DNA of 64,000 bases. It comes from an uncultured delta proteobacterium. Lineage in GTDB: Bacteria; Desulfobacterota; WTBG01. The stretch's first letter is position 1. Each line of letters begins with the position of its first letter. The stretch spans positions 140,281 to 204,280 of the forward strand of contig CAVVUR010000008.1 in NCBI GenBank assembly GCA_963751515.1. The letters are read 5' to 3'. Shown piece after piece: positions 12,738-33,628 of the stretch. A model generated the notes under the pieces. It searched no databases. It was given only the letters and a program-made list of their open reading frames with translations, and was not told the origin of the DNA. The translations under genes were made by a program, and so were the position numbers.

Positions 12738-12821
12738 CACAATTCAGGGCGTATTTATAAACTGCGATTGCTTATAAATACGATAGCAAGCACCCTTCAC
12801 GTTTTCACCATAATCACAACC

Positions 12822-14024
12822 ATGCGCATTCATCATTGTTTAATCTGCATCTGCCTCTGTTCCATTGCCGCCTGCTCGACTCTCGACGGGGCGCGCCAGA
12901 CCGCACAAACCAAAATGGTGCAGGCGAAGCAGACCATCCCCGAATCCGAGTTGCTGGACGTGGATATCGCCATCTTTACGAGTGACGAGATCACCGAAAA
13001 AAGAGCCCGAAAAGAAGGCACCAATCCCGAGGTGAGAAAGGCTGAGAACCATTTTATTCCCTACCACCTGAAAAACACCCTGGAGGGGAGCGGTTACTGG
13101 GGCATGGTCCGGGTCACCCCGGTGATATCCGATGCGGCGGAAGTCATGGTGCGGGGTGAGATACTTGAATCGAACGGCGAGAACCTTGCCGTCAAGGTGA
13201 CCGTCAGCGACGCCACCGGCAGGGTGTGGCAGGAGAAGGAGTACGGGGCCTCGGCCACCGGCAGCGACTACCTGGGCACCACCCCCGGAGAAAAGGACGC
13301 GTTTCAGGGTCTCTACAACGCCATCTCCAATGACATGTCCCGCTTTCTTCAGGAGTTGCGCCCCGATGAGATACAGACGCTGCGCACCGTTTCAAACCTC
13401 CGCTTCGCGGGTGATTTCGCACCCCATGCCTTCGGGGACTATCTGCAGGAAAACAATGGCCGGTTTACCCTAAAGCGGCTTCCGGCCGACAATGATACCA
13501 TGATGGCCCGCATCCTGCAGATTCGCGAACGTCAATACATGTTTGAGGACGTCATCAACGAGCATTACGAAGGTTTCTACAATGAAATGTGGTCACCCTA
13601 CGAAGGCTGGCGCTCCTCAAACCTGACAGAGCGCCTTGCCCTGGAAAAGCAGCGACGCTCCGCCCTCCTCCGGGAGGCCGCGGGCGCGCTGCTGATAGCG
13701 CTGGCCATCCTGGGCGAAGTGGGCGATGTGCATGATTCCGGCGCCCTGACCGCAACGATGGTTATCATCGGCGGCCAGGTATTTTTAAGCGGCGTCAATA
13801 TCTCCAAGCAGGCCCAAATGCATTATGAAACGCTGGCAGAGCTGGGTGAATCATTCGGAAGCGAAATGAAGCCGGTGGTGATGGAATTTGAAGGAAAGAA
13901 GTATGAGCTGACTGGATCGGCGGAACAGCAATACAAGCGCTGGCGGGAGCTCTTGCGGGAAATATACTATGCCGAGACGGGGTTCCCAGCAGGAGGCGAA
14001 TCAATTGAGGTACAACCACAGTAA
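12822..14024 (+). CDS. hypothetical lipoprotein
   Basis: Probable start MRIHHCLICICLCSIAACS (lipobox IAAC); stop overlaps start of next gene (translational coupling). Confidence 0.5.
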   Translation: MRIHHCLICICLCSIAACSTLDGARQTAQTKMVQAKQTIPESELLDVDIAIFTSDEITEKRARKEGTNPEVRKAENHFIPYHLKNTLEGSGYWGMVRVTPVISDAAEVMVRGEILESNGENLAVKVTVSDATGRVWQEKEYGASATGSDYLGTTPGEKDAFQGLYNAISNDMSRFLQELRPDEIQTLRTVSNLRFAGDFAPHAFGDYLQENNGRFTLKRLPADNDTMMARILQIRERQYMFEDVINEHYEGFYNEMWSPYEGWRSSNLTERLALEKQRRSALLREAAGALLIALAILGEVGDVHDSGALTATMVIIGGQVFLSGVNISKQAQMHYETLAELGESFGSEMKPVVMEFEGKKYELTGSAEQQYKRWRELLREIYYAETGFPAGGESIEVQPQ

Positions 14025-15601
14025 TGGGCAGATCTTGTCTTCCACCGGAAAAACACATGCACGACCAAACGGGCACCACACCTACAGACCCGCGTGACAA
14101 AATCATAACCCCGCTCAAGGTGACCGCGAGAGAAGAAGGGGCCGGTCACGCTGACGGCAGGAAACAATCATTCCGGTATTACACCACGCTGGTTGGGGCT
14201 CTGGTAATCCTCACTGCGGGAGGTCTCTGGCTGTTCAGCTACCTGTCAAGGAACCCCCTGCCACCTGAAGCAGCGCGAAATCAAAAGCAGGCGTCGGAAG
14301 TGACTCCTGAAGCGGTGCCGTCAATCGTTCCTGTCACAACACAACCTCCGGCAGCGCAGGCGCAGTCGGCTGCGCAGAACAAAAAGGAAGAGGCGGAACA
14401 AAAGCTCGCTGATTTTTTGAAAGCAAAAAAAGAGCTTGATGAGAAGGGGGTCGCAGAGTGGGGCGGAGAGGGCTATCAGCGGCTGCTGCAGCTCGCTCAG
14501 GCTGCCGATGCCGCGCTCATGCGGGAAGAGTTTGCAGCCGCCGCAGAGGGCTACACTCAGGCCTCCGCTGTCGCGCTCAGCCTGAAAGCAGGTATGGTGG
14601 ATGCGCTCAGTGACATCCTTGAGCAAGGCCGGCGCGCGCTCAAGGAAGGCGACGGCAAGAAGGCTGAACGGCTCTTCAGACTCGCCCTGATGATAGAACC
14701 TGCGCACCCTGTGGCCCTGCGCAATCTCGATCGCGCCAAAAACTGCGGGAAGGTCTTGGAGCTGCTGCAATCCGCCGCGCGGCATGAAGAAGGCAACAGC
14801 CTTTCTTCCGCCCGTGATGACTACCAGGAGGCCGTTTGGCTGGACCCTGAATCGGAAGAGGCCCGGGCCGGCCTGGCACGCGTGACCGGCCTGATAGCTT
14901 CCCGGCAATTTGATGAATTGATGTCAGGGGGAATAACCGCGCTGCACGCGCACGACTACGGCCGCGCCCGGCAGCTGCTCCTCAAGGCGCGATCGATTAA
15001 GCCCGATTCCCCCGAGGTCAATGACGCTCTCGCTCAGGCGGATTCGGCCCTGAAAAGGGCCCGCATCGCTGGGCTGCAAAATGAGGCGGCTGCTGCCGAG
15101 CGCTCCGAGGACTGGAATGAGGCGCTTGCAGCCTATCAAAGCGCTCTTTCCCTGGATGGCTCCATTCAGTTTGCCCTGCAGGGCAAAGAACGGGCGCTCA
15201 AGCGTAAGGAAATGGAAGAAAGCATCAAAAGCTACCTGGCCCAGCCAGGCCAGCTGGAAACCGACGGATCCCTGAACAGGGCAAGGGCGTTGCTTGGTGA
15301 GGCGCGGCAGATGGAGCCGAGAGGTCCCCGCTTGAGCAGTCTTATACAGGAACTGGATGAGCTTGTTGCCGCCGCCCGCACCACTGTCCCGGTGATTATC
15401 GAATCGGACGGGGAAACCGAAGTGGCCGTTTACAAGGTGGGCAAGCTGGGCCGCTTCCAAAGCAAGGAACTGGCCCTCCGCCCGGGAACCTATACGGTCA
15501 CGGGGGCCCGATCCGGATACAAGGATGTGCGCCGCAGCCTCTCGGTCAAGGCCGGCAGCGCGTCGCTGCGCATAACCGTCAGCTGCACTGAAAAAATATG
15601 A
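14024..15601 (+). CDS. membrane-anchored TPR-repeat protein with C-terminal PEGA-like beta domain
   Basis: Single TM 'YYTTLVGALVILTAGGLWLFSYL'; repeated Ala/Leu-rich TPR-like helices; C-term 'LALRPGTYTVTGARSGYKDVRRSLSVKAG'; overlaps next gene by 4 nt. Confidence 0.6.
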   Translation: MGRSCLPPEKHMHDQTGTTPTDPRDKIITPLKVTAREEGAGHADGRKQSFRYYTTLVGALVILTAGGLWLFSYLSRNPLPPEAARNQKQASEVTPEAVPSIVPVTTQPPAAQAQSAAQNKKEEAEQKLADFLKAKKELDEKGVAEWGGEGYQRLLQLAQAADAALMREEFAAAAEGYTQASAVALSLKAGMVDALSDILEQGRRALKEGDGKKAERLFRLALMIEPAHPVALRNLDRAKNCGKVLELLQSAARHEEGNSLSSARDDYQEAVWLDPESEEARAGLARVTGLIASRQFDELMSGGITALHAHDYGRARQLLLKARSIKPDSPEVNDALAQADSALKRARIAGLQNEAAAAERSEDWNEALAAYQSALSLDGSIQFALQGKERALKRKEMEESIKSYLAQPGQLETDGSLNRARALLGEARQMEPRGPRLSSLIQELDELVAAARTTVPVIIESDGETEVAVYKVGKLGRFQSKELALRPGTYTVTGARSGYKDVRRSLSVKAGSASLRITVSCTEKI

Positions 15602-17697
15602 AAATGTCTGCAGAGCCTCCGGCGCAACAAATCATTGAACCCATACCATTCAAACCGGTCGACTCCCGTCGTCCGCACGGTGGCCTATCCCGCGGACGAT
15701 GGCTGTTCATTGCGCTTCTTGCATGCTTCCTTTTCTTTTTCCTCTACGCGATCCTGTTTGTCTTTACCGCCCGTCAGGTATCAATACAAATACATCCCGA
15801 CCCCGATCGGGTCTCCGTCAAGGGGTCGCTCTTCAGCATCCACATTGGCAGCAGCTACCTCCTGCGCCCCGGAAACTATCGTGTGCACGCCTTTAAATCC
15901 GGGCACAAAGCGCTGGAGCTGCCGTTGCTTGTCACCGGGGAGTCAAACCAGAAACTGGTCGCCGTCATGGAAAAGCTTCCCGGCCGCTTAACCGTAACCG
16001 CTTATCCGCAGGAGCGGCCCGCTGAAACCGTTGCAGGGGCCGAGGTCTCTATCGACGGTCAAAAGGCCGGTGTCACTCCCCTTGCCGTCATCGAGGTCAA
16101 GGCCGGTCCCAGGGAAGTGCTCATCAGGGCAGACCAGTACCAGGACTTCAAAACCTCCCTGGAGGTAGAAGGCATGGGCACCTTGCAGACACTAAACGCG
16201 GCGCTGGTATCAGCATCGGGCGGTATCACCGTTGATTCCATTCCATCAGGCGCGGACGTTGCCATCGATGGAACAGTACGGGGAAAAACCCCCTTGCAGC
16301 TCAAGCTCGGCGCAGGAACCTATGGCTTGGAGATACGCGCCCCCCATTACAAAAGCTGGCAGGACCGCCTTGAGTTAAAGGAAGGTCAGCAGGAGGTGCT
16401 GGATACGGTCACGCTGCTTCCTGCCGACGGCACCATACAAGTGCGGACGAACCCTCCGGGGGCCATTGTGACAGTTGATAAAACCTTCTTCGGACGCACG
16501 CCCGCAAGCATTCCGCTTTCGCCGGAGGCTGATCACGCGCTTCACATCTCCAAGGCGGGCTACGAAAATATTGAAGAAAAGGTGCGTGTGGCCAGCGAAG
16601 AGGTCCGGGAACTCAGCCTGGAGCTGAAACCCGCCACCGGGACCATCCACTTCAGCGTAACACCTGAGAACGCAGAGCTTTACATTAATGCCATGCCTCA
16701 AGGCCCTGTGCCTCCGAGCCTGATCCTCCCATCCGCGCCACAGAAGCTCAAAATAGTAAAAGAAGGTTACGAGACGTATCAAACAGAGATAACGCCGCAG
16801 CCCGGCGTTGCAAAGGAAATAAACGTAACCCTCCTCAAAAAAATCCCGGCCCCGGCGGCAGCGGGTTCAGCAGCGAGCATCAGAGCTGCGAACGGATACC
16901 CCCTGCTCCTGGTCCGGCTTTCCTCCTTTACCATGGGTTCTTCGCGGCAGGAACAGGGACGCAGATCCAACGAAACGCTCCGAGAAATCGTTTTCACCCG
17001 GCCATTTTACATGGGCCTCAAGGAAGTGAGCAACGCTGAATTCCGGGCATTTCTCCCCGGCCATGATTCCGGCTCTCTTCAAGACCACAGCCTCAATCAG
17101 GACGCGCAGCCGGTTGTCAATATTACCTGGGAGGAGGCCGCCTCATACTGCAACTGGTTAAGCGGGAAGGAAAAGCTCCCGCCGGTGTATAGCCTCCGGG
17201 GAGGCAGGTTGATTGCCGGGGGACCCCTGGCAAGCGGCTACCGGCTGCCGACAGAGGCGGAATGGGAATACTGTGCACGCGTGACCGGAAAGACGGCTGA
17301 CTCACTCTATCCCTGGGGCAGCGGCTTTCCGCCCCCGACACGAACCGTTAACATTGCCGACCTCTCCGCCCGGGATCTGCTTCCCGGGTACTTTGACAAC
17401 TATGAGGACGGCTATCCTGTTTCAGCTCCGCCCGCCACCTTCGCTGCCAACGCACTCGGCATCTACGATCTCGGCGGCAATGTTGCCGAGTGGTGCCATG
17501 ACTATTATTCAATATACTCTTACAACCCCGGCCAACGCTACCAGGACCCCGCGGGCCTTCAGGAAGGAACGCATCACCTTATAAGAGGGTCAAGCTTCAG
17601 GCACGCGAGCATCAGCGCCCTGCGATCCGCTTTCCGGGATTACAGCAGTGAAAAAAGACCGGACGTGGGATTTCGCGTCTGCCGGTACGCCGATTAA
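15598..17697 (+). CDS. membrane protein with multiple PEGA domains and C-terminal FGE-sulfatase (SUMF1/formylglycine-generating enzyme-like) domain
   Basis: PEGA motifs e.g. 'SIPSGADVAIDGTVRGKTPLQLKLGAGTYGLEI'; FGE signature 'GYRLPTEAEWEYCAR', 'NVAEWCHDYY'; N-terminal TM. Confidence 0.75.
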   Translation: MKMSAEPPAQQIIEPIPFKPVDSRRPHGGLSRGRWLFIALLACFLFFFLYAILFVFTARQVSIQIHPDPDRVSVKGSLFSIHIGSSYLLRPGNYRVHAFKSGHKALELPLLVTGESNQKLVAVMEKLPGRLTVTAYPQERPAETVAGAEVSIDGQKAGVTPLAVIEVKAGPREVLIRADQYQDFKTSLEVEGMGTLQTLNAALVSASGGITVDSIPSGADVAIDGTVRGKTPLQLKLGAGTYGLEIRAPHYKSWQDRLELKEGQQEVLDTVTLLPADGTIQVRTNPPGAIVTVDKTFFGRTPASIPLSPEADHALHISKAGYENIEEKVRVASEEVRELSLELKPATGTIHFSVTPENAELYINAMPQGPVPPSLILPSAPQKLKIVKEGYETYQTEITPQPGVAKEINVTLLKKIPAPAAAGSAASIRAANGYPLLLVRLSSFTMGSSRQEQGRRSNETLREIVFTRPFYMGLKEVSNAEFRAFLPGHDSGSLQDHSLNQDAQPVVNITWEEAASYCNWLSGKEKLPPVYSLRGGRLIAGGPLASGYRLPTEAEWEYCARVTGKTADSLYPWGSGFPPPTRTVNIADLSARDLLPGYFDNYEDGYPVSAPPATFAANALGIYDLGGNVAEWCHDYYSIYSYNPGQRYQDPAGLQEGTHHLIRGSSFRHASISALRSAFRDYSSEKRPDVGFRVCRYAD

Positions 17698-17718
17698 TCC
17701 TTTAGAAAAAAAATCAAT

Positions 17719-18063
17719 ATGTGCTATACCATAACCATACTGGGTCTGCTCTGCTGCACGTGCCTTCCTGCACCATCATTCAGGGGCGCAAGCGATACGG
17801 TCAGGTGGCAACACATCGGATGGGAAAGCTGTTTCATCCTCACTGACGGCGCTCACCATCCAGGCTTGCTTGCCCAGCGGAGTCAAACCACCATTCCTGA
17901 CAGAAAAGAGCCGGCACCTGAAAAGCAGGATGCCAAGCCCCAAGCGGCAGAACAGAACAAAGAAGTGTCTCAGCAGAAAGATAAAACACCAGCTCCTAAA
18001 GACTTTGTTCCCTCTGAAAAGATTGATGCTGATAAGGCGGTGGATTTTCCGGCAGATATTTAA
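17719..18063 (+). CDS. small Lys/Pro/Gln-rich hypothetical protein (possibly not expressed)
   Basis: ORF only; low-complexity C-terminus; no RBS evaluated. Confidence 0.2.
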   Translation: MCYTITILGLLCCTCLPAPSFRGASDTVRWQHIGWESCFILTDGAHHPGLLAQRSQTTIPDRKEPAPEKQDAKPQAAEQNKEVSQQKDKTPAPKDFVPSEKIDADKAVDFPADI

Positions 18064-18075
18064 GAGGAGTCCGAC

Positions 18076-18879
18076 ATGAAAAAATCGTTTTCTTTATCCT
18101 TTGAGTTCCTGTACCAGTTGTTCTCGCTTATCATCAGCGTTATCCTGGTGCATGCAGTCTACGTGGGGATCATCTGGCCCGCCTCGGATGCATTTCTGGC
18201 CGAACAGGCTGCCCTGATGAAACAGGACCCATCGCACGTAGCCAAGCAGTCCGTCTACGTGGTATTGGTTGACTATGAACAGGAGACAGAAATCATCCTC
18301 ATGTTCTGGGCATTGGCCATCATGATCTACAAAGGCATTGTAATCACCAGAAACCGCACCCTGCTGCAGGAGGACCTGATACCCATGGCGGAGGGAATGA
18401 AAATATTGCCTGAGGATGTCCACGATATCTCCCGGCAGATACAGTCATTGCCGGCGGCGCAGAAGGGTGCCCTGCTTTCCCGGGTTTTGCTTGCCGCATT
18501 GCAGCGTTTCAGTTCAACCCGCAACATTCAGGATGTATCCAATGCCACCAATGCCTATTGTGCTTCTGAAGGAGACCGCCTGGACTCCGAGCTTTCCATG
18601 ATCAGATACGTCCTGTGGGCCATTCCCTCCATCGGTTTTCTGGGCACGGTGCGGGGCATCAGCCTGGCGCTGGGCTATGCCCACCGGGCGGTCGAAGGGG
18701 ACATCTTTGATGTCACCAAAAGCCTGGGGACGGCATTCAACTCAACCCTGATCGCCCTGCTGATAAGTCTCGTGCTGATGTTTTTCCTGCACCAGCTTCA
18801 GCTGCTTCAGGAGCGTTACGTGCTGGATACTGAAACATACTGCGAAGAGAAGCTCATCAGTCGTCTCCACGCCCGTTAG
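18076..18879 (+). CDS. MotA/TolQ/ExbB-family proton-channel protein (stator A-type subunit)
   Basis: Family signature across last two TM helices 'IPSIGFLGTVRGISLALGYAHRAVEGDIFDVTKSLGTAFNSTLIALLISLVLMFF'; 4 predicted TM; AGGAG RBS 7 nt upstream. Confidence 0.75.
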   Translation: MKKSFSLSFEFLYQLFSLIISVILVHAVYVGIIWPASDAFLAEQAALMKQDPSHVAKQSVYVVLVDYEQETEIILMFWALAIMIYKGIVITRNRTLLQEDLIPMAEGMKILPEDVHDISRQIQSLPAAQKGALLSRVLLAALQRFSSTRNIQDVSNATNAYCASEGDRLDSELSMIRYVLWAIPSIGFLGTVRGISLALGYAHRAVEGDIFDVTKSLGTAFNSTLIALLISLVLMFFLHQLQLLQERYVLDTETYCEEKLISRLHAR

Positions 18880-18890
18880 GAGTATAGATC

Positions 18891-20321
18891 ATGACACTGC
18901 TGGGAATCGAGTTGAGTGACGCCGGCATAATGGCAGCTGCAGGAGATCCGCCACTGCTCCTCGACACAGATGGGGCAGAAAAATCAAGCCCCGGTTTTGC
19001 CCTCAGCACCAACGATGGACTCATCATGGGACGAGTTGCCTTAAGCAGGTTTCGTCTCAATCCCCGCTCATACAACAATCGTTTCTGGGACGAGCTGAGC
19101 ACTGAACCGATTAAACAGCCGGGGTTTGAAGGGAAAAGCTATGCGGAGCTGGCATATCGTCACCTGTCAAAGCTATGGGACATCCTCAGGAATAAAGCAG
19201 ACGAGGTTGTCATCGCTGCCCCCGGTTTTTATACCCCGCATCAGCTGGGCATTCTCTTGGGGATTGCGGATGAATTATCCATACCCGTCAAAGGATTTGC
19301 CTCGATCGCACTGGCAGGATCGTCGGCCCCCCATCCTGAGCACCCCCTCCTGCACTTGGACATTCACCTGCACCGGATTGAAATAACCTTTCTCGAGCAG
19401 GGTGACCGCCTTATCCAGAAAGAAGTGAAGACTATTCCGGGTAGAGGTTTCAACTATCTGTACACGGAATGGGTGAAGATGGTTGCAGACGAGTTTGTGC
19501 GAACAACACGTTTTGACCCCTTTGATCAGGCCGCATACGAACAGGAGTTGTACAACCGCCTTCCCCCGGCAATTGAAAGCCTGCAGCCGCATTCATCCAC
19601 GACATTTACCTTACAAGCCGGGGCACACAGCCACCGCGCAACCTTAACCCATGACCTTTTTGCTCAAAAAACCGAAGCCGTGCTTTCAGAGGTGCGCCGG
19701 ATCATCGAGGATATGATGCTCAGTGCAGGCTTCCATGAAAAAGCCCCCGTTCTTTCGATCACTCAACGCATCCGTCACCTGCCCGGCTTCAAAGAATCCA
19801 TATGCAAAATACCCGGTCTCACCATCGTTGAACTTGCGCCGGGATCGGGTGCCCTGGGAGTACTCAAGCTGCGGGACCGATTCACCAGCCAGCACGAAAG
19901 ACAGGGTATCACACTTTTAAACAGCCGCCCCTGGCCGCCCAAATCAGCCGGCGGCCATGCCCCCACCCCACCTGTCCGGGCCATCATGCAGCCCAATCAT
20001 ATCCTGCACGAGGATTGTGCCTACCCCATTACCGCTGAGCCTCTCATCATTGGTCAGAGTAACCATGACGGTGAGACCACCCTGTGCATCAGCAGCAACC
20101 CTTCAGATTTCTCTCAACGATACTGTACCATTCAGCGTGAAAGGGATGATATCGTACTCGTCAATGAGTGTTCGGCCGGCACCCTTGTGAATGAACAAAA
20201 GGTTTTAAAAACATGTGTTCTCAGCCTGGGCCAGAAAATCAGAGTGGGGACACAATCAGATGAGCTCAAACTGATCGCTTGTGTGGGCACTGATGAAAAA
20301 GAGAGACGTAACCGTATTTAG
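18891..20321 (+). CDS. Hsp70/actin-fold ATPase domain fused to C-terminal degenerate FHA domain
   Basis: DnaK-like phosphate-1 'LLGIELSDAGIMAA' and 'VVIAAPGFYTPHQLGILLGIADELSIPVKGFASIALAGS'; C-term FHA-like 'IIGQSNHDGETTLCISSNPSDFSQRYCTIQRERDDIVLVNECSAGTLVNEQKV...LSLGQKIRVG' (Arg->Gln, His->Tyr at canonical positions). Confidence 0.6.
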   Translation: MTLLGIELSDAGIMAAAGDPPLLLDTDGAEKSSPGFALSTNDGLIMGRVALSRFRLNPRSYNNRFWDELSTEPIKQPGFEGKSYAELAYRHLSKLWDILRNKADEVVIAAPGFYTPHQLGILLGIADELSIPVKGFASIALAGSSAPHPEHPLLHLDIHLHRIEITFLEQGDRLIQKEVKTIPGRGFNYLYTEWVKMVADEFVRTTRFDPFDQAAYEQELYNRLPPAIESLQPHSSTTFTLQAGAHSHRATLTHDLFAQKTEAVLSEVRRIIEDMMLSAGFHEKAPVLSITQRIRHLPGFKESICKIPGLTIVELAPGSGALGVLKLRDRFTSQHERQGITLLNSRPWPPKSAGGHAPTPPVRAIMQPNHILHEDCAYPITAEPLIIGQSNHDGETTLCISSNPSDFSQRYCTIQRERDDIVLVNECSAGTLVNEQKVLKTCVLSLGQKIRVGTQSDELKLIACVGTDEKERRNRI

Positions 20322-21384
20322 CATCTCCTTCATTGACTGCATCACCTGCGGCCTGGGCGCGATGCTCCTGCTGTTTGTGATTGTGAATGCCAGGAGCGTG
20401 GCCAGCAGGAGCGAGATCACCTCGGACATCCGGGGAGAAGTTGACCGGATGGAAAAAGAGGTGCTCCAGGGGAAAAAGGACCTGGTGGAAGCCCGCAATA
20501 CAATGGAGCAGACCCTGGAGGAACTGGTGAAAACGCAGGGGCTCTCGCGCAGGGTTATAGCAACCATTACGGAAAAAAAGACCGAGCTTTCCAGTTATGA
20601 CAACGATACCCTCGCCTCCAGGGAACACATCAACCGCTTGAAGGCGGATCTCAAGGCGAAGGAGGAGGCGCTCAAGCGGCTCGAAGGCGGGAGCACCTCC
20701 CGCGACGACCACGGCTCGAAGGTGAGGCAATTCACCGGAGAGGGTGACCGCCAGTACCTGACCGGCCTCAAGATGGGAGGCCAGCGGGTCTTCATCCTTG
20801 TCGATGCCTCGGCCAGCATGCTTGATGATACCGTCGTGGGCATCATCCGCAAAAGGAATATGGCCGACGCGGACAAGCGAAAGGCAGACAAGTGGCGGCA
20901 TGCGGTGAAGTCCATCGACTGGCTGACCACCCAGCTACCCCTCACCGGCTCCTACCAGGTTTACAGCTTCAATGAGACCGCTGCCCCTGTCCTCGAGGGG
21001 ACCGCCGGAAAGTGGCTGGACGGCAACAATTCCCTGCAGCTTAATGAGATAGTCAACCGTTTGCACCTGATGGTGCCGCAGAACGGAACCAGCCTCATCA
21101 ATGCCATTGCCGCCATGCACGCCATGTCACCGCCGCCCGACAACATCTTCCTGCTCACCGACGGACTGCCCACCATGGGAAGAGAAAAGCCCTGGGGCAA
21201 AAAGGTATCCGGGGAAAAGCGCCTGGCCCTGTTTAACGAAGCAACGCGCCAGCTTCCGCCCCAGGTTCCGGTAAATGCAATTTTATATCACATGGAAGGG
21301 GATCCTGCCGCCGCCAGCGCCTTCTGGCGACTGGCCATGGCAACCGGCGGCTCCTTTTTTTCTCCGTCCCGGGACTGGCCCTAA
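20293..21384 (+). CDS. ExbD/TolR-like N-terminal TM helix (conserved Asp) + coiled coil + vWA domain protein, paralog 1
   Basis: TM 'VTVFSISFIDCITCGLGAMLLLFVIV' (cf. TolR 'EINIVPLLDVLLVLLLIFM'); long Glu/Lys heptad region; vWA MIDAS 'RVFILVDASASM', 'NGTSLINAI', 'IFLLTDGLP'; start overlaps upstream gene. Confidence 0.7.
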   Translation: MKKRDVTVFSISFIDCITCGLGAMLLLFVIVNARSVASRSEITSDIRGEVDRMEKEVLQGKKDLVEARNTMEQTLEELVKTQGLSRRVIATITEKKTELSSYDNDTLASREHINRLKADLKAKEEALKRLEGGSTSRDDHGSKVRQFTGEGDRQYLTGLKMGGQRVFILVDASASMLDDTVVGIIRKRNMADADKRKADKWRHAVKSIDWLTTQLPLTGSYQVYSFNETAAPVLEGTAGKWLDGNNSLQLNEIVNRLHLMVPQNGTSLINAIAAMHAMSPPPDNIFLLTDGLPTMGREKPWGKKVSGEKRLALFNEATRQLPPQVPVNAILYHMEGDPAAASAFWRLAMATGGSFFSPSRDWP

Positions 21385-21420
21385 CCGGTTGTTGAAAAAG
21401 GAGTGGCGCATGAATAGCAT

Positions 21421-21457
21421 GTGACTCAAAGGGGGAGGGGTTTTTTAGCCACAACAA
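21421..21457. repeat. partial (left-end only) copy of MITE-like repeat
   Basis: GTGACTCAAAGGGGGAGGGGTTTTTTAGCCACAACAA followed by AGAACGGC block; no right inverted end. Confidence 0.45.
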
Positions 21458-21511
21458 AATTATACGGAGCCTGGAGAACGGCTCTTTTTCTCACAGGTGT
21501 TCATGATGAAT

Positions 21512-21563
21512 GGTAGGAGCGGCTTTAAGCCGCGATCATATCGCACCTGAAGGTGCTCCTACC
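21512..21563. repeat. REP-like imperfect palindrome (GGTAGGAGCGGCTTTAAGCCGC...GCTCCTACC)
   Basis: Arms GGTAGGAGC/GCTCCTACC; related perfect palindrome at 46332. Confidence 0.5.
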
Positions 21564-21601
21564 GACCCATGCATTTTGCTTGCTGCACATTTAAAAAACC
21601 C

Positions 21602-22603
21602 ATGAGAACGCGAAGAAGAGAACTCGAGATATTCAGCCTCTCATTTCTGGACTGCATCTGCTGCGGCTTCGGCGCCATTATCCTGCTCTTTGTCCTGTCG
21701 AAATTCGGCCAGCCCATCAAGATAGAGGAAGTGAAGCAGGATTTGACGGCGCTTCTGGCAAAGCGCGAAGAAGAGCTGTTTGTTATCCGGGGTGAAGTAC
21801 AGGTGCTCAACCGTGAGCTGGAAGGAAAAAAGGAGCAGCTCTCGCGGGAGAAGGAGAGCCTGGCGCGCCTCCAGGGCGACCTCTCAAAATTACAGGGGGA
21901 GTTTGCCGCATCACAGCAAAATGCCGCGGTACAAAACACCATTGAGGGCAAGCTCGCTCAGGCCCAGCAGGAGCTTACCGAGGAGATGAAGCGTCTGCAG
22001 AAGGACCGGCCGGTGGTGCGCGACGGCTCGGTGGGAGGCATCCCCGTCGACAGCGAGTACATTATTTTCATCATCGACACCTCGGGGAGCATGCAGCGCA
22101 ATGCCTGGCAGCTGCTGCAGAAAAAGCTCCGCGAAACGCTGGATGTCTACCCCCGGGTCAAGGGCATCCAGGTCATGAACGACGAAGGCACTTATTTATT
22201 TCCCGAGTACCGCGGCAGCTGGATCCCCGACACCGCGGGCCGCCGAAAGGTGATCATCAACACCTTAAGCGGCTGGACACCCTTCAGCAACAGCAGCCCC
22301 GTGGAAGGGATCAACGAAGCCATCTCCACCTATTACGATCCCGGCAGGAAGATCAGCCTCTATGTCTTCGGCGATGAGTTCAGCGGATATGACATGCAGG
22401 GGGCAATCGATACCGTGGACCGGTTAAATAAAGCGGACAGGACTGGCGCGCGGCGGGTGAGGATCCACGCGGTGGGATTTCCCACGGTGCTCAAAGATAT
22501 CCGCGATGAGATGAATACAGGGGTTCGCTTTGCCGCCCTGATGCGCGTCCTCTGCCAGCGAAACGGGGGCACGTTTGTCGGGCTCAACACCACCAGGCCT
22601 TAG
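21602..22603 (+). CDS. ExbD/TolR-like N-terminal TM helix (conserved Asp) + coiled coil + vWA domain protein, paralog 2
   Basis: TM 'LEIFSLSFLDCICCGFGAIILLFVLS'; coiled coil; vWA 'YIIFIIDTSGSM', 'LYVFGDEFSG'; ORF in track begins at 21569, the Met at 21602 is preferred by homology to paralog 1. Confidence 0.7.
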   Translation: MRTRRRELEIFSLSFLDCICCGFGAIILLFVLSKFGQPIKIEEVKQDLTALLAKREEELFVIRGEVQVLNRELEGKKEQLSREKESLARLQGDLSKLQGEFAASQQNAAVQNTIEGKLAQAQQELTEEMKRLQKDRPVVRDGSVGGIPVDSEYIIFIIDTSGSMQRNAWQLLQKKLRETLDVYPRVKGIQVMNDEGTYLFPEYRGSWIPDTAGRRKVIINTLSGWTPFSNSSPVEGINEAISTYYDPGRKISLYVFGDEFSGYDMQGAIDTVDRLNKADRTGARRVRIHAVGFPTVLKDIRDEMNTGVRFAALMRVLCQRNGGTFVGLNTTRP

Positions 22604-22673
22604 TGCGGTGCGTGTACCAGTTCTTTACCCATTGTTGTTACCTGAACGGAGTGACAAGCCTCTTGTAGAAAAA

Positions 22674-22700
22674 GCAGCCCCCTGCGTCGCAGGAGGCTGC
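22674..22700. terminator. bidirectional terminator hairpin between convergent genes
   Basis: GCAGCCCCCTGCGTCGCAGGAGGCTGC stem; TTTTTCT run on minus strand side. Confidence 0.5.
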
Positions 22701-22754
22701 TTCATACTTCCCATTCTGCCAACCTCTTTACCGCTTATGTGACAGCAAAACCCT

Positions 22755-23186
22755 TCAGTACCGCCACTTGCCTCTGGAAAATGAGAAGATCTCGGTTACC
22801 GGGCATTCCTGTTGAAGCTTGAACTGCCCGTTTACCGCTTCTTCATAGGTCTTGGCCTTACTGACGAAGGTCTGCTCCTGATAATTGAGGATCCCGACAT
22901 AGGGAGTCTCTTTGCTTGCAGTCTTTTTGGTTCTTCCGCTATAGGTTCTGCTGTAGCCGGTATATTCAGCAACGAAGCAATCATCAACCTTCTTGCAGGC
23001 AATATTGATCTTGCTTTTTTCTTCCCGGCTATACAGATGCTCCATCCACTGCTGATTGAAAAGCTGAAAGCTCGCCTCCACGTCCTGGCTTTCATCTATC
23101 GCATACAGCGCAGGATGTGGTACCAGCACGCCGAGGCACAGGGCCACCGCATAAACGGCAACAAGGTATCTCATGGCCGCACTCAT
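22755..23186 (-). CDS. secreted hypothetical protein
   Basis: Signal peptide 'MRYLVAVYAVALCLGVLV'; no recognisable domain. Confidence 0.4.
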   Translation of the reverse strand: MSAAMRYLVAVYAVALCLGVLVPHPALYAIDESQDVEASFQLFNQQWMEHLYSREEKSKINIACKKVDDCFVAEYTGYSRTYSGRTKKTASKETPYVGILNYQEQTFVSKAKTYEEAVNGQFKLQQECPVTEIFSFSRGKWRY

Positions 23187-23845
23187 TCGCCGTTCATGAC
23201 CTTGAACTCAACCCTGCGGTTCATTTCCCGGCCCTGACGGGTTTCATTGTCGGCAACGGGGTTCGCTTCACCATACCCCATCGTGCTCAGTTTTTCAGCG
23301 GCAATGCCCTTCTCCACCATATAGGCCTTCACTGCTTCCGCCCGCTTTTCAGAGAGACGCAGGTTGTAATCCTCGGCCCCGATGCTGCAGGTATAACCCT
23401 CAACCGCAACACTTTTCTCGGGATGCTTTGCTAAAGCGGCAATCCCCTCATCAAGGATTGGATAATATTGATCCTTAATGACCGCCTTGTCGAAGTCGAA
23501 CTGTATGCCATTGAGAACGATCTTTTCAACCACCTTGGGCGGCGGTGGCGGTTCTTCTGCTACTGGCTCAGGTACCGTCGTCGTTGTCGTCGGCGGCGGT
23601 TCCTCTTTGCACACCACTGCACCGATTATTCCTCCGACGACTAAACCAGCTGCCGCACCGACAGCGGCCCCCTCTGCGGTATCTTCATCACCCTGGTGAC
23701 CAACAACAGCACCAGCACCGGCTCCTATAGCTGCACCGGCTACAGCACCTGCTGCTATACATTTTGCCCGCTTGGACGCCGTCGAGCAACCAGCGGCCAG
23801 CACAACTACCAGAATTAAGACCATCGCCTTCGCAAATACTTTCAT
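23183..23845 (-). CDS. OmpA-family peptidoglycan-binding lipoprotein with glycine-zipper and Pro/Thr linker
   Basis: Lipobox 'LAAGCS'; 'AGAVAGAAIGAGAGAVVG' Gly-zipper; OmpA_C-like 'NGIQFDFDKAVIKDQYYPILDE...NRRVEFKV'. Confidence 0.8.
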   Translation of the reverse strand: MKVFAKAMVLILVVVLAAGCSTASKRAKCIAAGAVAGAAIGAGAGAVVGHQGDEDTAEGAAVGAAAGLVVGGIIGAVVCKEEPPPTTTTTVPEPVAEEPPPPPKVVEKIVLNGIQFDFDKAVIKDQYYPILDEGIAALAKHPEKSVAVEGYTCSIGAEDYNLRLSEKRAEAVKAYMVEKGIAAEKLSTMGYGEANPVADNETRQGREMNRRVEFKVMNGE

Positions 23846-24389: not shown

Positions 24390-24585
24390 AGCCCTTCCTC
24401 CTTTCAAGAATGTACTGCCCGTTGAAAAAACAAAGCGACTGTCCCGCATCCTTCAATTAATACATTTACTTATAATGCTATTCCTCAAAAATGTCAAAGC
24501 AAAACTGCGTACGCCATGCATTTTTTAGACCGCCGTGGGCACCCCATAAAATTATGCCACCGTGCAACTCAATAACAGCAAGACA

Positions 24586-25473
24586 TTACGGAACTATTTC
24601 ATACCCATACCGCTTCATTTCTTCACCGCACAAAGTAATAAACGTATCTTTATCCGACCGGCTCCATTCCGGCCATTTGGGAAAAAGAAATGTCCTGGTA
24701 ATGTTCTTGGGCTTTCCGACAAATTCAAGCCACTCCTGTTCTACATTGAACTTCATATCCGTTATCGTAAGCAGCATGGATTCAAATGCGGCGTAATTGC
24801 TGATCATGTCCTCAAATCGTATGGTTGCATCAGCATGTTCCCGCATGTACGAGTTTTCATAGGTCCACAGCCAGCAGAGCTTTTCGAACCGTGTAAAGCG
24901 CGACCACCGATGAGGATCAATGTCTTTACGGGGAGGGACAAAATCGTAATAGTCCTTATCCTCCGGGGTATACGCTCTCCTGCTCATGACCGACCGCACC
25001 CCATCTCTTCCGTCACGGATGACATGAATAATTTTCATGGCCGGGAGATGCTTCTTAAACGCCGCTATGTGTCGGCGCAAATGGCTGTTGACTTCACCAT
25101 ACATGCTAGCCCTGTTCGCAACACACCGCAGGGCCATCTCCCCAAGGCGAAAATCAAGGAGATACTTCTCCGCTTCGGCGGGATTCATAACTGCTTTCTT
25201 GTGGAAGGGATTTTCCCTTGGAACCGGCTCATGCATGACGCACAAACCGTCAACACGCCTGTTTAAAAAATGTGCCAGCCAGGCGGTTCCTGTTCTTCCG
25301 GTGCTGGTGATCAAAAAAAGCTTTCGCTGCTTCAGAATGGCAAGCGCTTCACCCGTTCCGGGAATTATCCAGCGAAGGGCGGCGCGATACGCAAATCCCT
25401 TATCAATGCCGATTTTACCGGCCTTGCGGCTCACCTGGTAAATAAAGCGTGTCCAATCAAATGTGCTGTTCAT
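24586..25473 (-). CDS. sulfotransferase-family protein
   Basis: PAPS 5'-phosphosulfate-binding-like 'FLITSTGRTGTAWLAHF'; 295 aa. Confidence 0.65.
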   Translation of the reverse strand: MNSTFDWTRFIYQVSRKAGKIGIDKGFAYRAALRWIIPGTGEALAILKQRKLFLITSTGRTGTAWLAHFLNRRVDGLCVMHEPVPRENPFHKKAVMNPAEAEKYLLDFRLGEMALRCVANRASMYGEVNSHLRRHIAAFKKHLPAMKIIHVIRDGRDGVRSVMSRRAYTPEDKDYYDFVPPRKDIDPHRWSRFTRFEKLCWLWTYENSYMREHADATIRFEDMISNYAAFESMLLTITDMKFNVEQEWLEFVGKPKNITRTFLFPKWPEWSRSDKDTFITLCGEEMKRYGYEIVP

Positions 25474-25506
25474 ACGTGCGCTCCCATACCCAGGCGACCT
25501 CTAAAA

Positions 25507-25575
25507 TTGTTGTGGCTAAAAAGCCCCTCCCCCTTGAGCCACATATAAATAAAGAAATCAATGACGCACTACACT
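25507..25575. repeat. half copy of MITE-like element (inner plus outer inverted-repeat module), reverse orientation
   Basis: TTGTTGTGGCTAAAAAGCCCCTCCCCCTTGAGCCACATATAAATAAAGAAATCAATGACGCACTACACT matches the reverse complement of 37128-37198. Confidence 0.5.
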
Positions 25576-26427
25576 GAATGATGTCTGAGAAATAACTGGC
25601 CAAAACAAGGGCAGGTGTCAATTTGACAGGGCTGCGCTTCCCTGTCAAAGGTGATGCCCTTGGAGATATGACCCAAAACGGTTTTGTCACCGACACATCT
25701 CGTAACCCTGCCGTCGGGCGATATGCGGATAAATAATCTGCCGGCATCGCATTTAATGCCCCTGGATTTTACCGGGATTTCCTCAAGGAAACAGGGGTTG
25801 TATTCTGAAAGCAGCTTTTTTTCCTCCCCGGCATAAGCCTGGGGGTACCGTTTCCCCTGGAACTCCCCCTTGAAAGGCTTGGGCATGATTGGACCCCTCT
25901 TGATCGGAAGTAGTCATAGTCCTTCATGAATCTGCTGATCAGGCTCGGCTGTAAAACATAGCTCACCCGGCAATTAAATCCCTTTTCCTGCAACAACAAA
26001 ATATTGCCTATAAAATCATCGACCTGATTTCCTCTTTCGCGCTCCGCGATATGCGTCCGATATGTAAAGGAGTCTACTGGTCTGGGTATGATTTTTTTGC
26101 AAACTCCGCCACCCTTCTGTTGATGCTTAAATTTGTATCTACATAAATGCAAAAGTGCTCCGTAAGCGTTTCGCACAATTGGACAAACCGGGGGTACGTG
26201 AAAGGTTCTCCGCCGGTTAAGCCGATCGTCCACTTTTTCCCCTCCTCGTTTTTCAACAGCTTAATTATCTTGCTGCTTCCCTCCAGGGGGTCCGCGGGAA
26301 GGCCGGTAAGCCTGTGCATATTTTTTTGCCCATGGTGCTGAAACGTCGCGCAATCCCGTGGTCGGAGTTTGCCCTTCCAATCTTGCAATACGGGCAGTGA
26401 AAATTGGATTCCCTGGTAAAATACCAC
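25569..26427 (-). pseudogene. radical SAM / SPASM-domain protein split over three reading frames
   Basis: Radical SAM 'GLTGGEPF' in ORF 26074-26427, middle and SPASM-like Cys-rich C-terminus ('CFLEEIP...CVGDK...CQIDTCPC') in two other frames. Confidence 0.45.
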
Positions 26428-26470
26428 AAGGCCAGGGCCTGTGTATCTTCGCTTGAACTCTGAGCAAATT

Positions 26471-27097
26471 TCATAAGGCGTTATGGGCTCTGATTCGTTT
26501 GTCCGCCCGCTCCATGAGCGGTTTCAGGCGCTTAAAAATTCTGCGCCACTTAAAATAGCTGGAGATGGAATCATACGCGGACACCGCTCCGTGTGTCAGG
26601 TAGAGGTATAATGCCGACAGGCGGGTCTCATCGGTATAGGCATACACCCTGTCATAACCGGCTGCCGCAAAAAAAGCCAGGCTTCGGTAGGTAAGCGCAA
26701 CGGCCAATCTTTTTTTCCCGCGGTGGGAGGAATCAAGTACAAGCCACAACCCGACTCCTATTTTTTTTCCCGCCGTGGACTTGTCAGACGTGGCGCTGCA
26801 TCCCACCAGGCGACCCTTATAGTACAGCAGCGACCCTGCATCCGGCGCGATCATCTGATCTACCAGGGCCTTTTTCACCCGTTCCGCTGTCCAGACACCA
26901 ACTCACTCATCACGATTTAAAAGATCGCTCCACTCATTAAGATCCGTTTCCTGACCCGGCGAGACGATGGTGTATCCCTCAGGCAAATCCCATTGCCGGC
27001 CCACATATTCTGCAAACGTGGCTACAGGAAATTCCAGTTTAACCTGCTTGGGGAAGAATATTCTGAAAAATTTTTTAATTTTTCTCTTGGACAGCAT
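26471..27097 (-). pseudogene. GNAT-family N-acetyltransferase interrupted by in-frame TGA (26903-26905)
   Basis: Two same-frame ORFs; downstream part has GNAT motif A-like 'HRGKKRLAVAL' and motif B region. Confidence 0.35.
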
Positions 27098-27546
27098 GAT
27101 TAAGGAGGTACGGGGAAGTCAGCAAGCACCGTCGCAGGGCACAGTCATTGATGGTTACTGTGCAGTCCGCAACACCCGCGCAAAAGCGCTGACAGGGTAA
27201 CACCAATGAATACAAATAGCAATGCGAATCTATTACCTGCTGCGGGGCACAGGTTGTGACGGAACAACCCGAAAGGGGGCGCCCATGCCCCGAAACGCCG
27301 TGTGCTATGCATGAAAGCATACAGCAGTGACCCCGTTAATCATCATCCGGTCTCCGCATCATTGTGACGGGTGAGCAAAAAAAACAACGATTGACAATTA
27401 CGGCAATAGCAGCTATATACCCCCTAATTTCAAATGGTTTTTCAGACGGGCACAAACGCCGATTGCTCCTTTCACATCACACAAGGGCGGCCCGAACCTC
27501 TTAAGAAATTGAGCAGAAACAGGGCATTATTAAAAGAGTTGCGCTG

Positions 27547-28692
27547 ATGTCTAACGTAGTAGCCCATTCGATAAAATCCTACCTGTTTCGCACGGGAAGC
27601 TGGATCTACGCTCAGATAAGTCACCTCAAGCGATTTCATCCCCTGGTCATTACCGATAAAAAAAGCAATCTCGATATTTTTCCCGTTGCTGAAATATACT
27701 CCCTCACGGACCTTAACCCATTCAATCGCTTTGCGCAGCAGCAGTATGTTAAGATCACCGGATCATCCTATCCTTTTTTCGGCAGGGTTCTTCGGAATAA
27801 GGGGGCTGTCCTCATCCACTCTCACTTTGGAAATCGCGGCTACTTTGATCTCCCCCTCAAGCAAAAGCTTGATATCCCCCTGGTCACCACATTTTACGGC
27901 CATGATGTTTCACTGCTTCCCCAGGAAGAGCGCTGGCAAAGGAGATTGAAGCAGCTTTTTGACGATGGCGACCTTGTGCTGGCAGAGGGACATTACATGA
28001 AAAAGACCCTGATGGAGCTGGGCTGCCCCGAGCATAAAGTGAAGGTGCAGCATCTCGGGATCAACCTGGACAGCATACCTTTTATCCCCCGCAAACCGGA
28101 CGGCGGTCACAGGATCAAGGTTCTGGTTGCGGGCACGTTTCGGGAAAAGAAAGGAATCACCTACGCGCTGGAGGCATTCGCCCGGGTTGCCTCCCGCCAT
28201 AAAAACCTCGAGCTTACACTCGTCGGTGACGCGGGACGCAGTCAGCGGGAAGTAGACTACAAAAAAGAGATTCTTTCACTTATCGGGGCCCGAAACATCG
28301 CCGCCCTGGTCAACTACCTGGGGTTCCTCCCTTATCCCGCATTTATCCGAGAGGCCCAGAACAATCACATTTTCCTCTCCCCCAGCATTCACCCTTCCGA
28401 CGGGGAGACGGAAGGCGGCGCCCCGGTGGCCCTTATAGAAATGTCCGCCTACGGCATGCCCATTGTTTCCACCTTCCACTGCGACATACCGGAGGTGGTG
28501 GTTGACGGGGCAAGCGGATTCCTGGTCCCGGAGAAGGATATCAACGCGCTCGCTGAACGGCTGGAATATCTCATCACCAATCCCGAGCTCTGGGAATCCA
28601 TGGGGCGTGCCGGACGGAGCCACATCGAGAAAAACTTCAACATCGAGCTTCAGGCGGCACGGCTCGAGGAGCACTATGACAGTCTCTTGTAA
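27547..28692 (+). CDS. glycosyltransferase family 4 (GT-B)
   Basis: 'EGGAPVALIEMSAYGMPIVSTFHCDIPEVVVDGASGFLVPEKD' GT4 C-terminal signature. Confidence 0.85.
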   Translation: MSNVVAHSIKSYLFRTGSWIYAQISHLKRFHPLVITDKKSNLDIFPVAEIYSLTDLNPFNRFAQQQYVKITGSSYPFFGRVLRNKGAVLIHSHFGNRGYFDLPLKQKLDIPLVTTFYGHDVSLLPQEERWQRRLKQLFDDGDLVLAEGHYMKKTLMELGCPEHKVKVQHLGINLDSIPFIPRKPDGGHRIKVLVAGTFREKKGITYALEAFARVASRHKNLELTLVGDAGRSQREVDYKKEILSLIGARNIAALVNYLGFLPYPAFIREAQNNHIFLSPSIHPSDGETEGGAPVALIEMSAYGMPIVSTFHCDIPEVVVDGASGFLVPEKDINALAERLEYLITNPELWESMGRAGRSHIEKNFNIELQAARLEEHYDSLL

Positions 28693-28920
28693 TGATACAT
28701 GATGCAGGATGCATGATGCAGGACAAGTCTTTAACATGAAGCGAGGGAAACAGGGCACATCCGAAATCCGAACAGAGAAACCAAGAGCCGGGGTTTTGAA
28801 CATTTGGTATGCTGATTTTGAATTTGTTTCGTGCTTCGGATTTGACACCCGAAACGACTGCACCTCAAAACCAATTATTACCAGTATGAACCATCTTTTG
28901 ATGCACCTGAAAGGCTCCCG

Positions 28921-29775: not shown

Positions 29776-29913
29776 TCACCATCCTTCCCGCCGCAATCAT
29801 TCGCGATACAATCCGGCCGCTTTTCGACGGTTCGACAGCACAGCTGAAAATAATGCGCGGGAAATGTGACAGGAGAAGCATCCCTTACCGTTTTTTGACC
29901 GGATGATAATGGT

Positions 29914-32534: not shown

Positions 32535-32749
32535 ACCGCATGCCTTTCCGGTGCGCCACATCCTTTTCGATGGCCGTCTTAGGTCAATCATGCAAGTTGA
32601 GGTGCGCCCGGATGGAATGGAGGAGGTTGTTTTTCCGACAAAAACACAGAAAATATTTGACAATCGCAAATAGTGGGATACACATAAACACTTTTTGTCA
32701 ATAACAATAATTGTATAAGGATTTCAAACCAATCAGGGAAGTGTTGATA

Positions 32750-33583: not shown

Positions 33584-33628
33584 CTTTCAAACCTCCATCC
33601 ACATCCCATTCCTGATTGATTTCCCAGT

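Follow-up and report, generated by a model that had tools for sequence, protein, structure and literature searches.

The window analysed here is a stretch of 64,000 nucleotides (nt) from contig CAVVUR010000008.1 of an uncultured delta proteobacterium, and all coordinates given below are positions within it. Its + strand carries an operon whose genes encode, in order, a lipoprotein, a TPR protein, a PEGA/FGE protein, a small protein, a MotA-like membrane protein, an Hsp70-like/FHA protein and two proteins with von Willebrand factor A (vWA) domains, referred to as vWA1 and vWA2, and it is the aspartate-bearing N-terminal membrane helix of these last two proteins that is considered here. vWA1 (20293-21384, + strand) has 363 amino acids (aa) and vWA2 (21602-22603, + strand), which has the same architecture, has 333 aa. 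Read directly in the sequence, vWA1 begins at the ATG at 20293 with MKKRDVTVFSISFIDCITCGLGAMLLLFVIV and vWA2 at the ATG at 21602 with MRTRRRELEIFSLSFLDCICCGFGAIILLFVLS; the first ATG is taken as the true start because the homologues of vWA1 are 363 aa long, and the second is fixed in the same way by homologues of 333 aa. vWA1 is made up of an 8-residue basic stub, the Asp-bearing transmembrane helix, a helical stalk of ~100 residues, a linker motif and the vWA domain, and vWA2 of a basic stub, the Asp-bearing helix, a second helix at residues 41-134 and a vWA domain with DTSGS as its metal ion-dependent adhesion site (MIDAS) motif. The transmembrane ('transpore') helix of vWA1 covers residues 9-31 (20317-20385, + strand), with D15 (codon GAC) at 20335-20337, C19 at 20347-20349 and G22 at 20356-20358, and that of vWA2 covers residues 11-33 (21632-21700, + strand), with D17 at 21650-21652 and C21 at 21662-21664. 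In the 217-nt spacer between the two genes (21385-21601) there are a promoter-like match (21392-21420) and, at 21466-21485, a weak hairpin with a T-run, both no more than shuffled sequence gives, and a promoter and terminator scan of 17600-23300 likewise gave counts that were not above those of shuffled sequence; in most related loci the two vWA genes abut or overlap.

The two proteins are paralogues along their whole length, that is through the transmembrane helix, the coiled coil and the vWA domain, as judged from their sequences. Plain BLASTP limits the similarity to the N-terminal 97 aa (E 3e-13), and alignment of the two families with hhalign extends it to 247 columns over the helix, the stalk and the globular domain (Prob 99.6%, E 7e-24), superposing the MIDAS motifs DASAS of vWA1 and DTSGS of vWA2. 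The MIDAS of vWA1 is complete and invariant among 19 sequences (D171-A-S173-A-S175, T266 and D290), and in vWA2 D159, T160, S161, S163 and D258 are invariant. The Pfam family VWA_2 scores 20.8 bits on vWA1, below its cutoff of 27, and is marginal on vWA2. An AlphaFold2 model of vWA1 built from the 19-sequence alignment has predicted local distance difference test (pLDDT) values of 85-93 at residues ~160-358, and a Foldseek search of this modelled head against the PDB returned vWA folds at E 7e-9 to 1e-5, including TFIIH p44, 4fx5, BatB (3ibs and 4jdu) and CLCA1; on the strength of the model a vWA fold with a MIDAS motif is present. The single-sequence AlphaFold2 model of vWA2 shows helices at 15-34 and 41-134 and a poor globular domain (mean pLDDT 56), and was used for helix boundaries alone. 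The vWA2 family profile yielded only coiled-coil matches and a weak integrin I-domain match (E 0.28) against the PDB, and the paralogy to vWA1 was set by hhalign instead. The ~95-100 residues that join the transmembrane helix to the head are predicted to be helical (at 41-134 in vWA2 and, with breaks, at 13-131 in vWA1), so that the stalks are alike in length, and the transmembrane helix is the sole strongly hydrophobic segment in vWA1. The linker motif of vWA1, F-x-G-x-G-D-R-Q-Y-L-T at residues 147-157 (20731-20763), stands between the stalk and the vWA domain; F147, G149, G151, R153, Q154, Y155 and T157 are invariant in the 19 vWA1 sequences, vWA2 lacks the motif and has a gap there in the hhalign alignment, and the AlphaFold2 confidence for it is low in vWA1. 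A role in docking, or as a kind of plug, is conceivable. Precomputed annotations of two vWA1 homologues (P0005 and P0020) list PF27881 and PF24161, neither of which appeared in a Pfam rescan at E<=10.

A sequence-only reading of this DNA had proposed that both vWA proteins begin with a short basic stretch and then F-[IL]-D within a common Asp-bearing N-terminal transmembrane helix. The peptides it quoted are exact and the pattern is found in both proteins and in their orthologues, which were taken from the best 80 loci of a genome-collection scan, with 45-71% identity to vWA1. These loci come from Desulfobacterales, many Gammaproteobacteria (Steroidobacteraceae, Woeseiaceae, Lysobacterales, Methylococcales and Thiotrichales), Kiritimatiellia and Acidobacteriota, and the family is found in the cultured Steroidobacter agaridevorans SA29-B and Peristeroidobacter agariperforans KA5-B. 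After the basic stub, whose consensus is MKRR or MxRRRR, the helix consensus common to both paralogues is FS-x-SF-[IL]-D-x-I-x-C-G-x-G-A. No orthologue was found without the Asp, which is invariant in 80/80 vWA1 and 69/69 vWA2 sequences, and the Phe two residues before it (D-2) and the Gly seven residues after it (D+7) are conserved to 100% in both proteins. All 80 vWA1 sequences have F13, D15, C19 and G22, and in vWA2 S14, F15, L16, D17 and G24 are each kept in 69/69; C21 of vWA2, which like C19 of vWA1 is the Cys at D+4, is kept in 67/69, with the Cys moved to D+3 in the two exceptions. Gly or Ala at D+5 and Ala or Ser at D+8 are also conserved in both paralogues, and His is absent from both helices in all orthologues. 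The vicinal Cys pairs that had been described as flanking the Asp fared less well, as all of the cysteines lie C-terminal to it and there is no conserved pair: the Cys at D+4 is the conserved one, whereas a Cys occurs at D+1 in just 35-46% of orthologues, the others having I, V, A or T, and D+3 varies. In each protein conservation is highest in the transmembrane segment, whose mean top-residue frequencies are 0.72 and 0.84 while the coiled coil and vWA domain reach 0.55-0.71, and it is far more than chance would give. Searched against 1.84 billion proteins, a 45-position helix profile matched 2,226 cluster representatives (clustered at 50% identity) at E<=1e-3, 640 of them at E<=1e-10, and the best 150 of the 2,226, which are mostly short metagenomic fragments, all keep both the Asp and the Cys at D+4. 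No other architecture carrying this helix was found among these 150; the few cases in which the helix is internal are read-through or mis-started vWA1-vWA2 calls.

The MotA-like protein is a membrane protein of the MotA/TolQ/ExbB family, 267 aa long and encoded at 18076-18879 on the + strand, which matches Pfam MotA_ExbB (PF01618) at E 1.9e-12 (47.5 bits, cutoff 22.9). On its own it found nothing at E<=1 when phmmer was run against PDB sequences, and a profile of 35 orthologues matched E. coli TolQ (8odt, 9kpz) at E 1.1e-3. In the ungapped alignment P184, T191 and T224 fall on P138, T145 and T178 of TolQ, and all three, the predicted pore residues, are invariant in the 35 orthologues; T191 and T224 are encoded at 18646-18648 and 18745-18747 on the + strand. 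The incompatible pore residues that had been envisaged as a reason to abandon the sequence-only reading were not encountered. Thr145 and Thr178 of TolQ together with Asp23 of TolR are described as essential, as are Thr148 and Thr181 of ExbB together with Asp25 of ExbD (PMC12905483). Four hydrophobic segments (residues 15-33, 73-91, ~176-200 and 220-238) suggest that the MotA-like protein has a topology of four transmembrane segments rather than the three of TolQ and ExbB, and just before the second of them is an invariant D66-x-E68-Q69-E70.

When the window proteins were searched by tblastn against the 80 loci a single conserved gene order emerged, in which the small protein and the Hsp70-like/FHA protein are variable. 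vWA2 comes next after vWA1 in 64/65 loci with room for it, and a MotA-like gene lies <=2 kilobases (kb) upstream of vWA1 in 69/70. No ExbD or TolR was found by phmmer at E<=10 in the 64-kb window or in the 80 loci (flanks of <=10 kb or to the contig end), in a search whose positive controls recovered all of the operon proteins, and in a 91%-identical relative with independent gene calls and precomputed Pfam annotations MotA_ExbB is present and ExbD is not. Without the vWA proteins as partners the MotA-like protein would therefore be an orphan. The gene context in the window is not flagellar. A reading of the locus as a Zorya defence system was rejected, since PADLOC gave partial ZorA matches only (E 5e-4 to 1e-2, over ~60-85 residues), with no ZorB and no other defence match in the scan.

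The invariant Asp, the linked MotA-like gene, the kept Thr positions, the lack of any ExbD or TolR in the searches and the MIDAS heads all support the view that vWA1 and vWA2 are probably the axle subunits of an ion-driven rotary motor of the 5:2 type, of which the MotA-like protein would be the outer ring. In such a motor the protein encoded two genes upstream of vWA1 would form a pentamer, each vWA protein would be anchored N-in, C-out by one helix, and two helices, most likely one from each paralogue, would sit inside the pentamer pore in place of ExbD2 or TolR2, with D15 and D17 facing the Thr ring formed by T191 and T224. Rotation of the ring against the axle would then be driven as the proton-motive force (or a sodium gradient) protonates and deprotonates the two Asp residues in turn, in the way of ExbBD, TolQR and MotAB. 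The stalks, which as a continuous coiled coil would measure ~14 nm, would keep a pair of MIDAS-competent heads in the periplasm, where these might bind an acidic ligand on a partner, for which the lipoprotein, TPR and PEGA/FGE proteins are the candidates, and by binding it would pass force or rotation on to the envelope; the Hsp70-like/FHA protein would be an optional regulator on the cytoplasmic side. We infer that the helices enter the pore, that the stoichiometry is 5:2 and that the vWA proteins pair as a heterodimer, and the same holds for the topology, for the ion and ligand involved and for the role in the cell; the heterodimer is deduced from the 1:1 co-occurrence of the two genes and the similar lengths of the stalks, and the N-in, C-out topology from the basic stubs. 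The small-residue face C-G-x-G-A, which comes one and two turns past the Asp, would suit tight helix packing in a narrow pore.

A class of protein answering to this description has been proposed on computational grounds. According to the available text of PMC12204202 (Mol Biol Evol 2025) there is a 'transpore-helix vWA' (TPH-vWA) class, put forward from synteny and AlphaFold 3 models, whose members adjoin orphan tolQ genes in pairs and in which AlphaFold 3 sets the pair of Asp residues in a ring of Thr. The class is said there to be 'predominantly found in heterologous pairs' and to occur chiefly in Proteobacteria and Verrucomicrobia; its reference locus is that of Idiomarina loihiensis and the published model is a computational one. 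The proteins described here resemble that class, as far as this text describes it, in being membrane-tethered vWA proteins with a conserved Asp and no SHLS/His motif in the helix, in forming a heterologous pair linked to a tolQ homologue with no tolR, exbD or motB gene found, and in having Thr ring positions, T191 and T224, that align with TolQ T145 and T178. Their distribution in Desulfobacterota, Gammaproteobacteria, Kiritimatiellia and Acidobacteriota is compatible with the one given there (Proteobacteria and Verrucomicrobia/PVC). All of the features compared agree, and on these sequence features the pair in the window appears to be a further member of a computationally predicted class, the match being one of described features. 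No Alteromonadales were among the best 80 loci. The available text of that paper makes no mention of the invariant Cys at D+4 or of the G-x-G-A face, nor of a coiled-coil stalk, an Hsp70-like/FHA protein or the lipoprotein, TPR and PEGA/FGE genes.

Several observations weigh against the view that the vWA helices are the axle of such a motor. Scans of the N-terminal 50 aa and of full-length vWA1 and vWA2 against Pfam at E<=10 found no ExbD (PF02472), TolR or MotB_plug (PF13677), returning coiled-coil noise and VWA_2 alone, and the helix profile found no ExbD, TolR, MotB, PomB or ZorB chain in the PDB at E<=10. Aligned directly with hhalign it reached Prob values of 0.7% with ExbD, 0.8% with TolR and 2.9% with MotB. 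The Glu at position 173 of TolQ is not conserved in the MotA-like protein, in which V219 is aligned with it, and the four hydrophobic segments, taken with a match to TolQ at an E of just 1e-3, mean that details of the channel may differ. The structure models made here are of single chains (AlphaFold2), and contact between helix and pentamer is a prediction for these proteins; in the literature no experimental work was found on any member of the family or on the gene cluster beyond the computational study of PMC12204202. Finally, two contigs of metagenome-assembled genomes break the synteny: L056 (11089-13500) has no vWA2 after vWA1, and in L050 (1-4950) the vWA pair is present with nothing MotA-like upstream of it. 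Either could be an artefact of assembly or binning, or a real variant.

The failure of the family searches determines what kind of likeness can be claimed. The sequence-only reading had compared the helix with the proton-relay helix of ExbD and TolR and had suggested a profile-profile alignment against the ExbD, TolR and MotB families, and no significant match came out of it. A genuine ExbD or TolR helix should have been detectable at this length, because E. coli ExbD, used as a positive control, detects a TolR peptide consisting of the transmembrane segment alone at E 2e-6. The best local hhalign alignments do put the Asp of the family on ExbD D25, TolR D23 and MotB D32, and as they are not significant they were not used for homology; of the E. 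coli sequences employed, that of ExbD was verified against 6tyi_Y (140/141 identical). The single PDB match of the helix profile, to NDUFB4, was dismissed as a chance CGFG resemblance. What does stand is that a short basic cytoplasmic stub comes first, that within the most hydrophobic 19-residue window the Asp occupies position 3-5, where ExbD and TolR also have theirs, and that the partner gene is of the MotA/TolQ family with the matching Thr ring. The vWA proteins have no small alpha/beta periplasmic domain of the ExbD/TolR kind, a helical stalk and vWA domain being found instead, and no MotB_plug or OmpA-like peptidoglycan-binding domain was recognised in them by Pfam. The likeness of the helix to those of ExbD, TolR and MotB is one of position, context and function and is not demonstrable homology; given that the family searches were negative it is to be described as functional analogy and not as family membership.

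An important consideration is whether the helix might serve some more ordinary purpose. It could be a signal-anchor that tethers periplasmic vWA adhesion or scaffold proteins in the manner of BatA and BatB, with an Asp that either has no part in ion relay or serves helix association, the MotA-like protein acting alone or with an unlinked partner. The lack of detectable homology to ExbD, TolR or MotB helices would be accounted for in this way, as would the structural closeness of the vWA domain to BatB (3ibs, 4jdu) among others, and polar residues can indeed drive the association of transmembrane helices. However, anchors evolve fast, and here the helix is the best-conserved part of the protein, F, D and G being invariant and C nearly so across phyla and in both paralogues, and for that reason its evolution is unlike that of a plain membrane anchor or signal peptide; nor would a signal-anchor explain the near-obligate linkage to a MotA/TolQ-family gene without a cognate partner, or the retention of the very Thr residues with which the axle Asp is paired in known motors. 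The generic signal-anchor, which the sequence-only reading had named as its alternative, must therefore be regarded as unlikely. Cleavage of the segment as a signal peptide, leaving soluble periplasmic vWA proteins, is hardly credible, even though a basic n-region and a hydrophobic core are present in vWA1, followed by a V-N-A motif in which N32 is kept in 94% and A33 in 65% of orthologues, for the hydrophobic stretch runs to ~23 residues with an Asp embedded in it, vWA2 reads SKFxEP where an AxA-type site would be needed, and residue-by-residue conservation in what is the most conserved segment of the protein is atypical of signal peptides.

A transmembrane helix, a long linker and a periplasmic globular domain are also the parts of TolA and TonB, so that the vWA proteins might instead be force transducers docked on the outside of the pentamer, with the true axle encoded elsewhere; vWA transducers are indeed proposed as the first vWA family in the available text of PMC12204202. 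Such transducers carry an SHLS/His docking motif, which is absent here, there being no His in either helix of any orthologue, and they accompany tolR-like genes, of which none was found. Moreover an invariant Asp embedded in the membrane is not a feature of TolA or TonB, and a transducer role is accordingly very unlikely. The assignment of vWA1 and vWA2 as axle subunits inside a MotA-like ring is the one that we prefer.

Compared with characterised systems the predicted motor shows a mixture of familiar and unfamiliar traits. As in ExbB-ExbD as well as TolQ-TolR, the outer-ring protein belongs to Pfam PF01618 and keeps the equivalents of TolQ P138, T145 and T178, and like ExbD and TolR its vWA partners have a single N-terminal helix with an Asp near the cytoplasmic end after a basic stub. 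Unlike ExbD and TolR, which have a small periplasmic domain and form homodimers, there is a long helical stalk with a vWA/MIDAS head and there are two distinct paralogues, and unlike the Ton and Tol systems no transducer of the TolA/TonB SHLS type was found and the equivalent of TolQ E173 is V219. The concept of an Asp-bearing B-subunit helix inside an A-subunit pentamer is shared with MotA-MotB and PomA-PomB, and the MotA-like protein resembles MotA in its four hydrophobic segments; the vWA proteins differ from MotB and PomB in having no plug or OmpA-like domain and in their non-flagellar context. A precedent for a hetero-dimeric axle is provided by the AglR-AglQ-AglS gliding motor of Myxococcus xanthus, in which a TolQ-like protein is associated with two different TolR-like axle paralogues. 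This system is named in both PMC12204202 and PMC11761067. AglQ and AglS are small TolR-type proteins without a vWA domain, unlike vWA1 and vWA2, and the vWA protein of the Agl system, CglB, is an outer-membrane lipoprotein and not an axle (PMC9946355). Pairs of vWA proteins anchored in the inner membrane and encoded with TPR proteins are a point of similarity to BatA and BatB of Bacteroides aerotolerance, and BatB structures are among the structural matches of vWA1. The Bat operon carries a MoxR ATPase and not a MotA/TolQ-like protein, and to our knowledge no conserved Asp-bearing helix has been described in Bat proteins. The vWA/FGS/PEGA conflict systems (eLife 2020) were considered and found to be unrelated to this cluster.

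The remaining genes of the operon, all on the + strand, are for the most part also conserved in their order. The first gene of the cluster (12768-14024) encodes a lipoprotein of ~400 aa with the lipobox IAAC (L-S-G-C in orthologues) that matched no Pfam or NCBIfam family and whose synteny is conserved. It is followed by a syntenically conserved single-pass membrane TPR protein of 525 aa (14024-15601), recognised by Pfam TPR families, with one hydrophobic segment at residues 56-74 and a C-terminal region that is beta-sandwich-like, and by a 699-aa single-pass membrane protein (15598-17697), again of conserved synteny, with four PEGA domains (Pfam E 2.7e-49) and a C-terminal FGE-sulfatase domain (E 6e-39). 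The latter gave a partial match to TIGR03525, the family of the type IX secretion ring lipoprotein GldK/PorK (E 1e-30; 107 bits, where the cutoff is 350), which is a lead and not evidence, as a generic FGE domain may account for it. An FGE fold beside a motor of the 5:2 type brings to mind PorK with PorLM. The small protein (17719-18063) is a 114-aa low-complexity product with an N-terminal signal-like segment, predicted to be secreted, and has tblastn matches in only ~13 loci. Between the MotA-like gene and vWA1 the Hsp70-like/FHA gene (18891-20321), whose 3' end overlaps the start of vWA1 by 29 nt, encodes a soluble protein of 476 aa with no hydrophobic segment (Pfam FHA E 5e-4). A profile of its orthologues matched the FHA domain of EmbR (E 1e-6) and the Hsp70 nucleotide-binding domains of SSB1 and DnaK (E 3e-5 to 1e-4) in the PDB, the part resembling an Hsp70/actin-like nucleotide-binding domain being N-terminal and the FHA domain C-terminal. 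It is probably a cytoplasmic regulator and occurs in 53/70 loci; it is regarded as accessory because it is missing from a block of gammaproteobacterial loci.

Directly downstream of the operon the - strand carries genes for a 143-aa secreted protein (22755-23186) and, convergent with the operon, for an OmpA-family lipoprotein with a glycine-zipper region (23183-23845; Pfam OmpA E 4e-24). This pair also follows the operon in a close relative (L081, L082), and OmpA-like matches were found downstream in three loci of the Woeseiaceae type (L052, L066 and L074). In the close relative the region downstream (L081:13253-19587) encodes a methyltransferase, a FemAB-like acetyltransferase, a hexapeptide transferase, glycosyltransferases of families 4 (GT4) and 2 (GT2) and a Kdo/WaaP-family kinase, and from these gene assignments it looks like a lipopolysaccharide-core or surface-polysaccharide cluster. 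The analogous region of the window lies at ~24500-33600, where an open reading frame at 27547-28692 encodes 381 aa, the same length as the product of the GT4 gene of L081.

The reading of the helix as one that works like the ExbD/TolR helix was thus anticipated in PMC12204202 and is supported here as functional analogy. What is new is the conserved operon of 7-8 genes that includes the Hsp70-like/FHA protein. The analysis also adds figures for conservation over ~80 loci and 2,226 clusters, the finding that particular Cys and Gly positions are invariant, homology tests that came out negative and the mapping of residues onto TolQ. As the family is large and includes cultured carriers the published computational proposal becomes directly testable, and the residues of interest (D15, D17, the Cys at D+4, the G-x-G-A face, T191, T224 and the MIDAS residues) and the partner genes are supplied. 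Characterised ion-driven rotary motors of the 5:2 type are few, comprising MotAB, ExbBD, TolQR, AglRQS, GldLM and ZorAB, and in each of them it is the axle protein that sets the function. It is conceivable, and we put it forward tentatively, that the whole cluster represents an uncharacterised trans-envelope machine, present in thousands of Desulfobacterota, Gammaproteobacteria, Kiritimatiellia and Acidobacteriota, in which a hetero-dimeric coiled-coil axle is driven round by a rotary ion motor and has MIDAS heads that grip a GldK/PorK-like (FGE-fold) periplasmic or outer-membrane module. If that were true it would be a new energised envelope function, whether in surface motility, in secretion or in remodelling of the envelope, and one separate from Ton, Tol, the flagellar motor, Agl-Glt, the type IX secretion system and Zorya. 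A vWA/MIDAS axle, if that is what these proteins form, would couple membrane energy directly to a metal-dependent periplasmic adhesion module and would point to a new energised process in the envelope of the bacteria that carry it.

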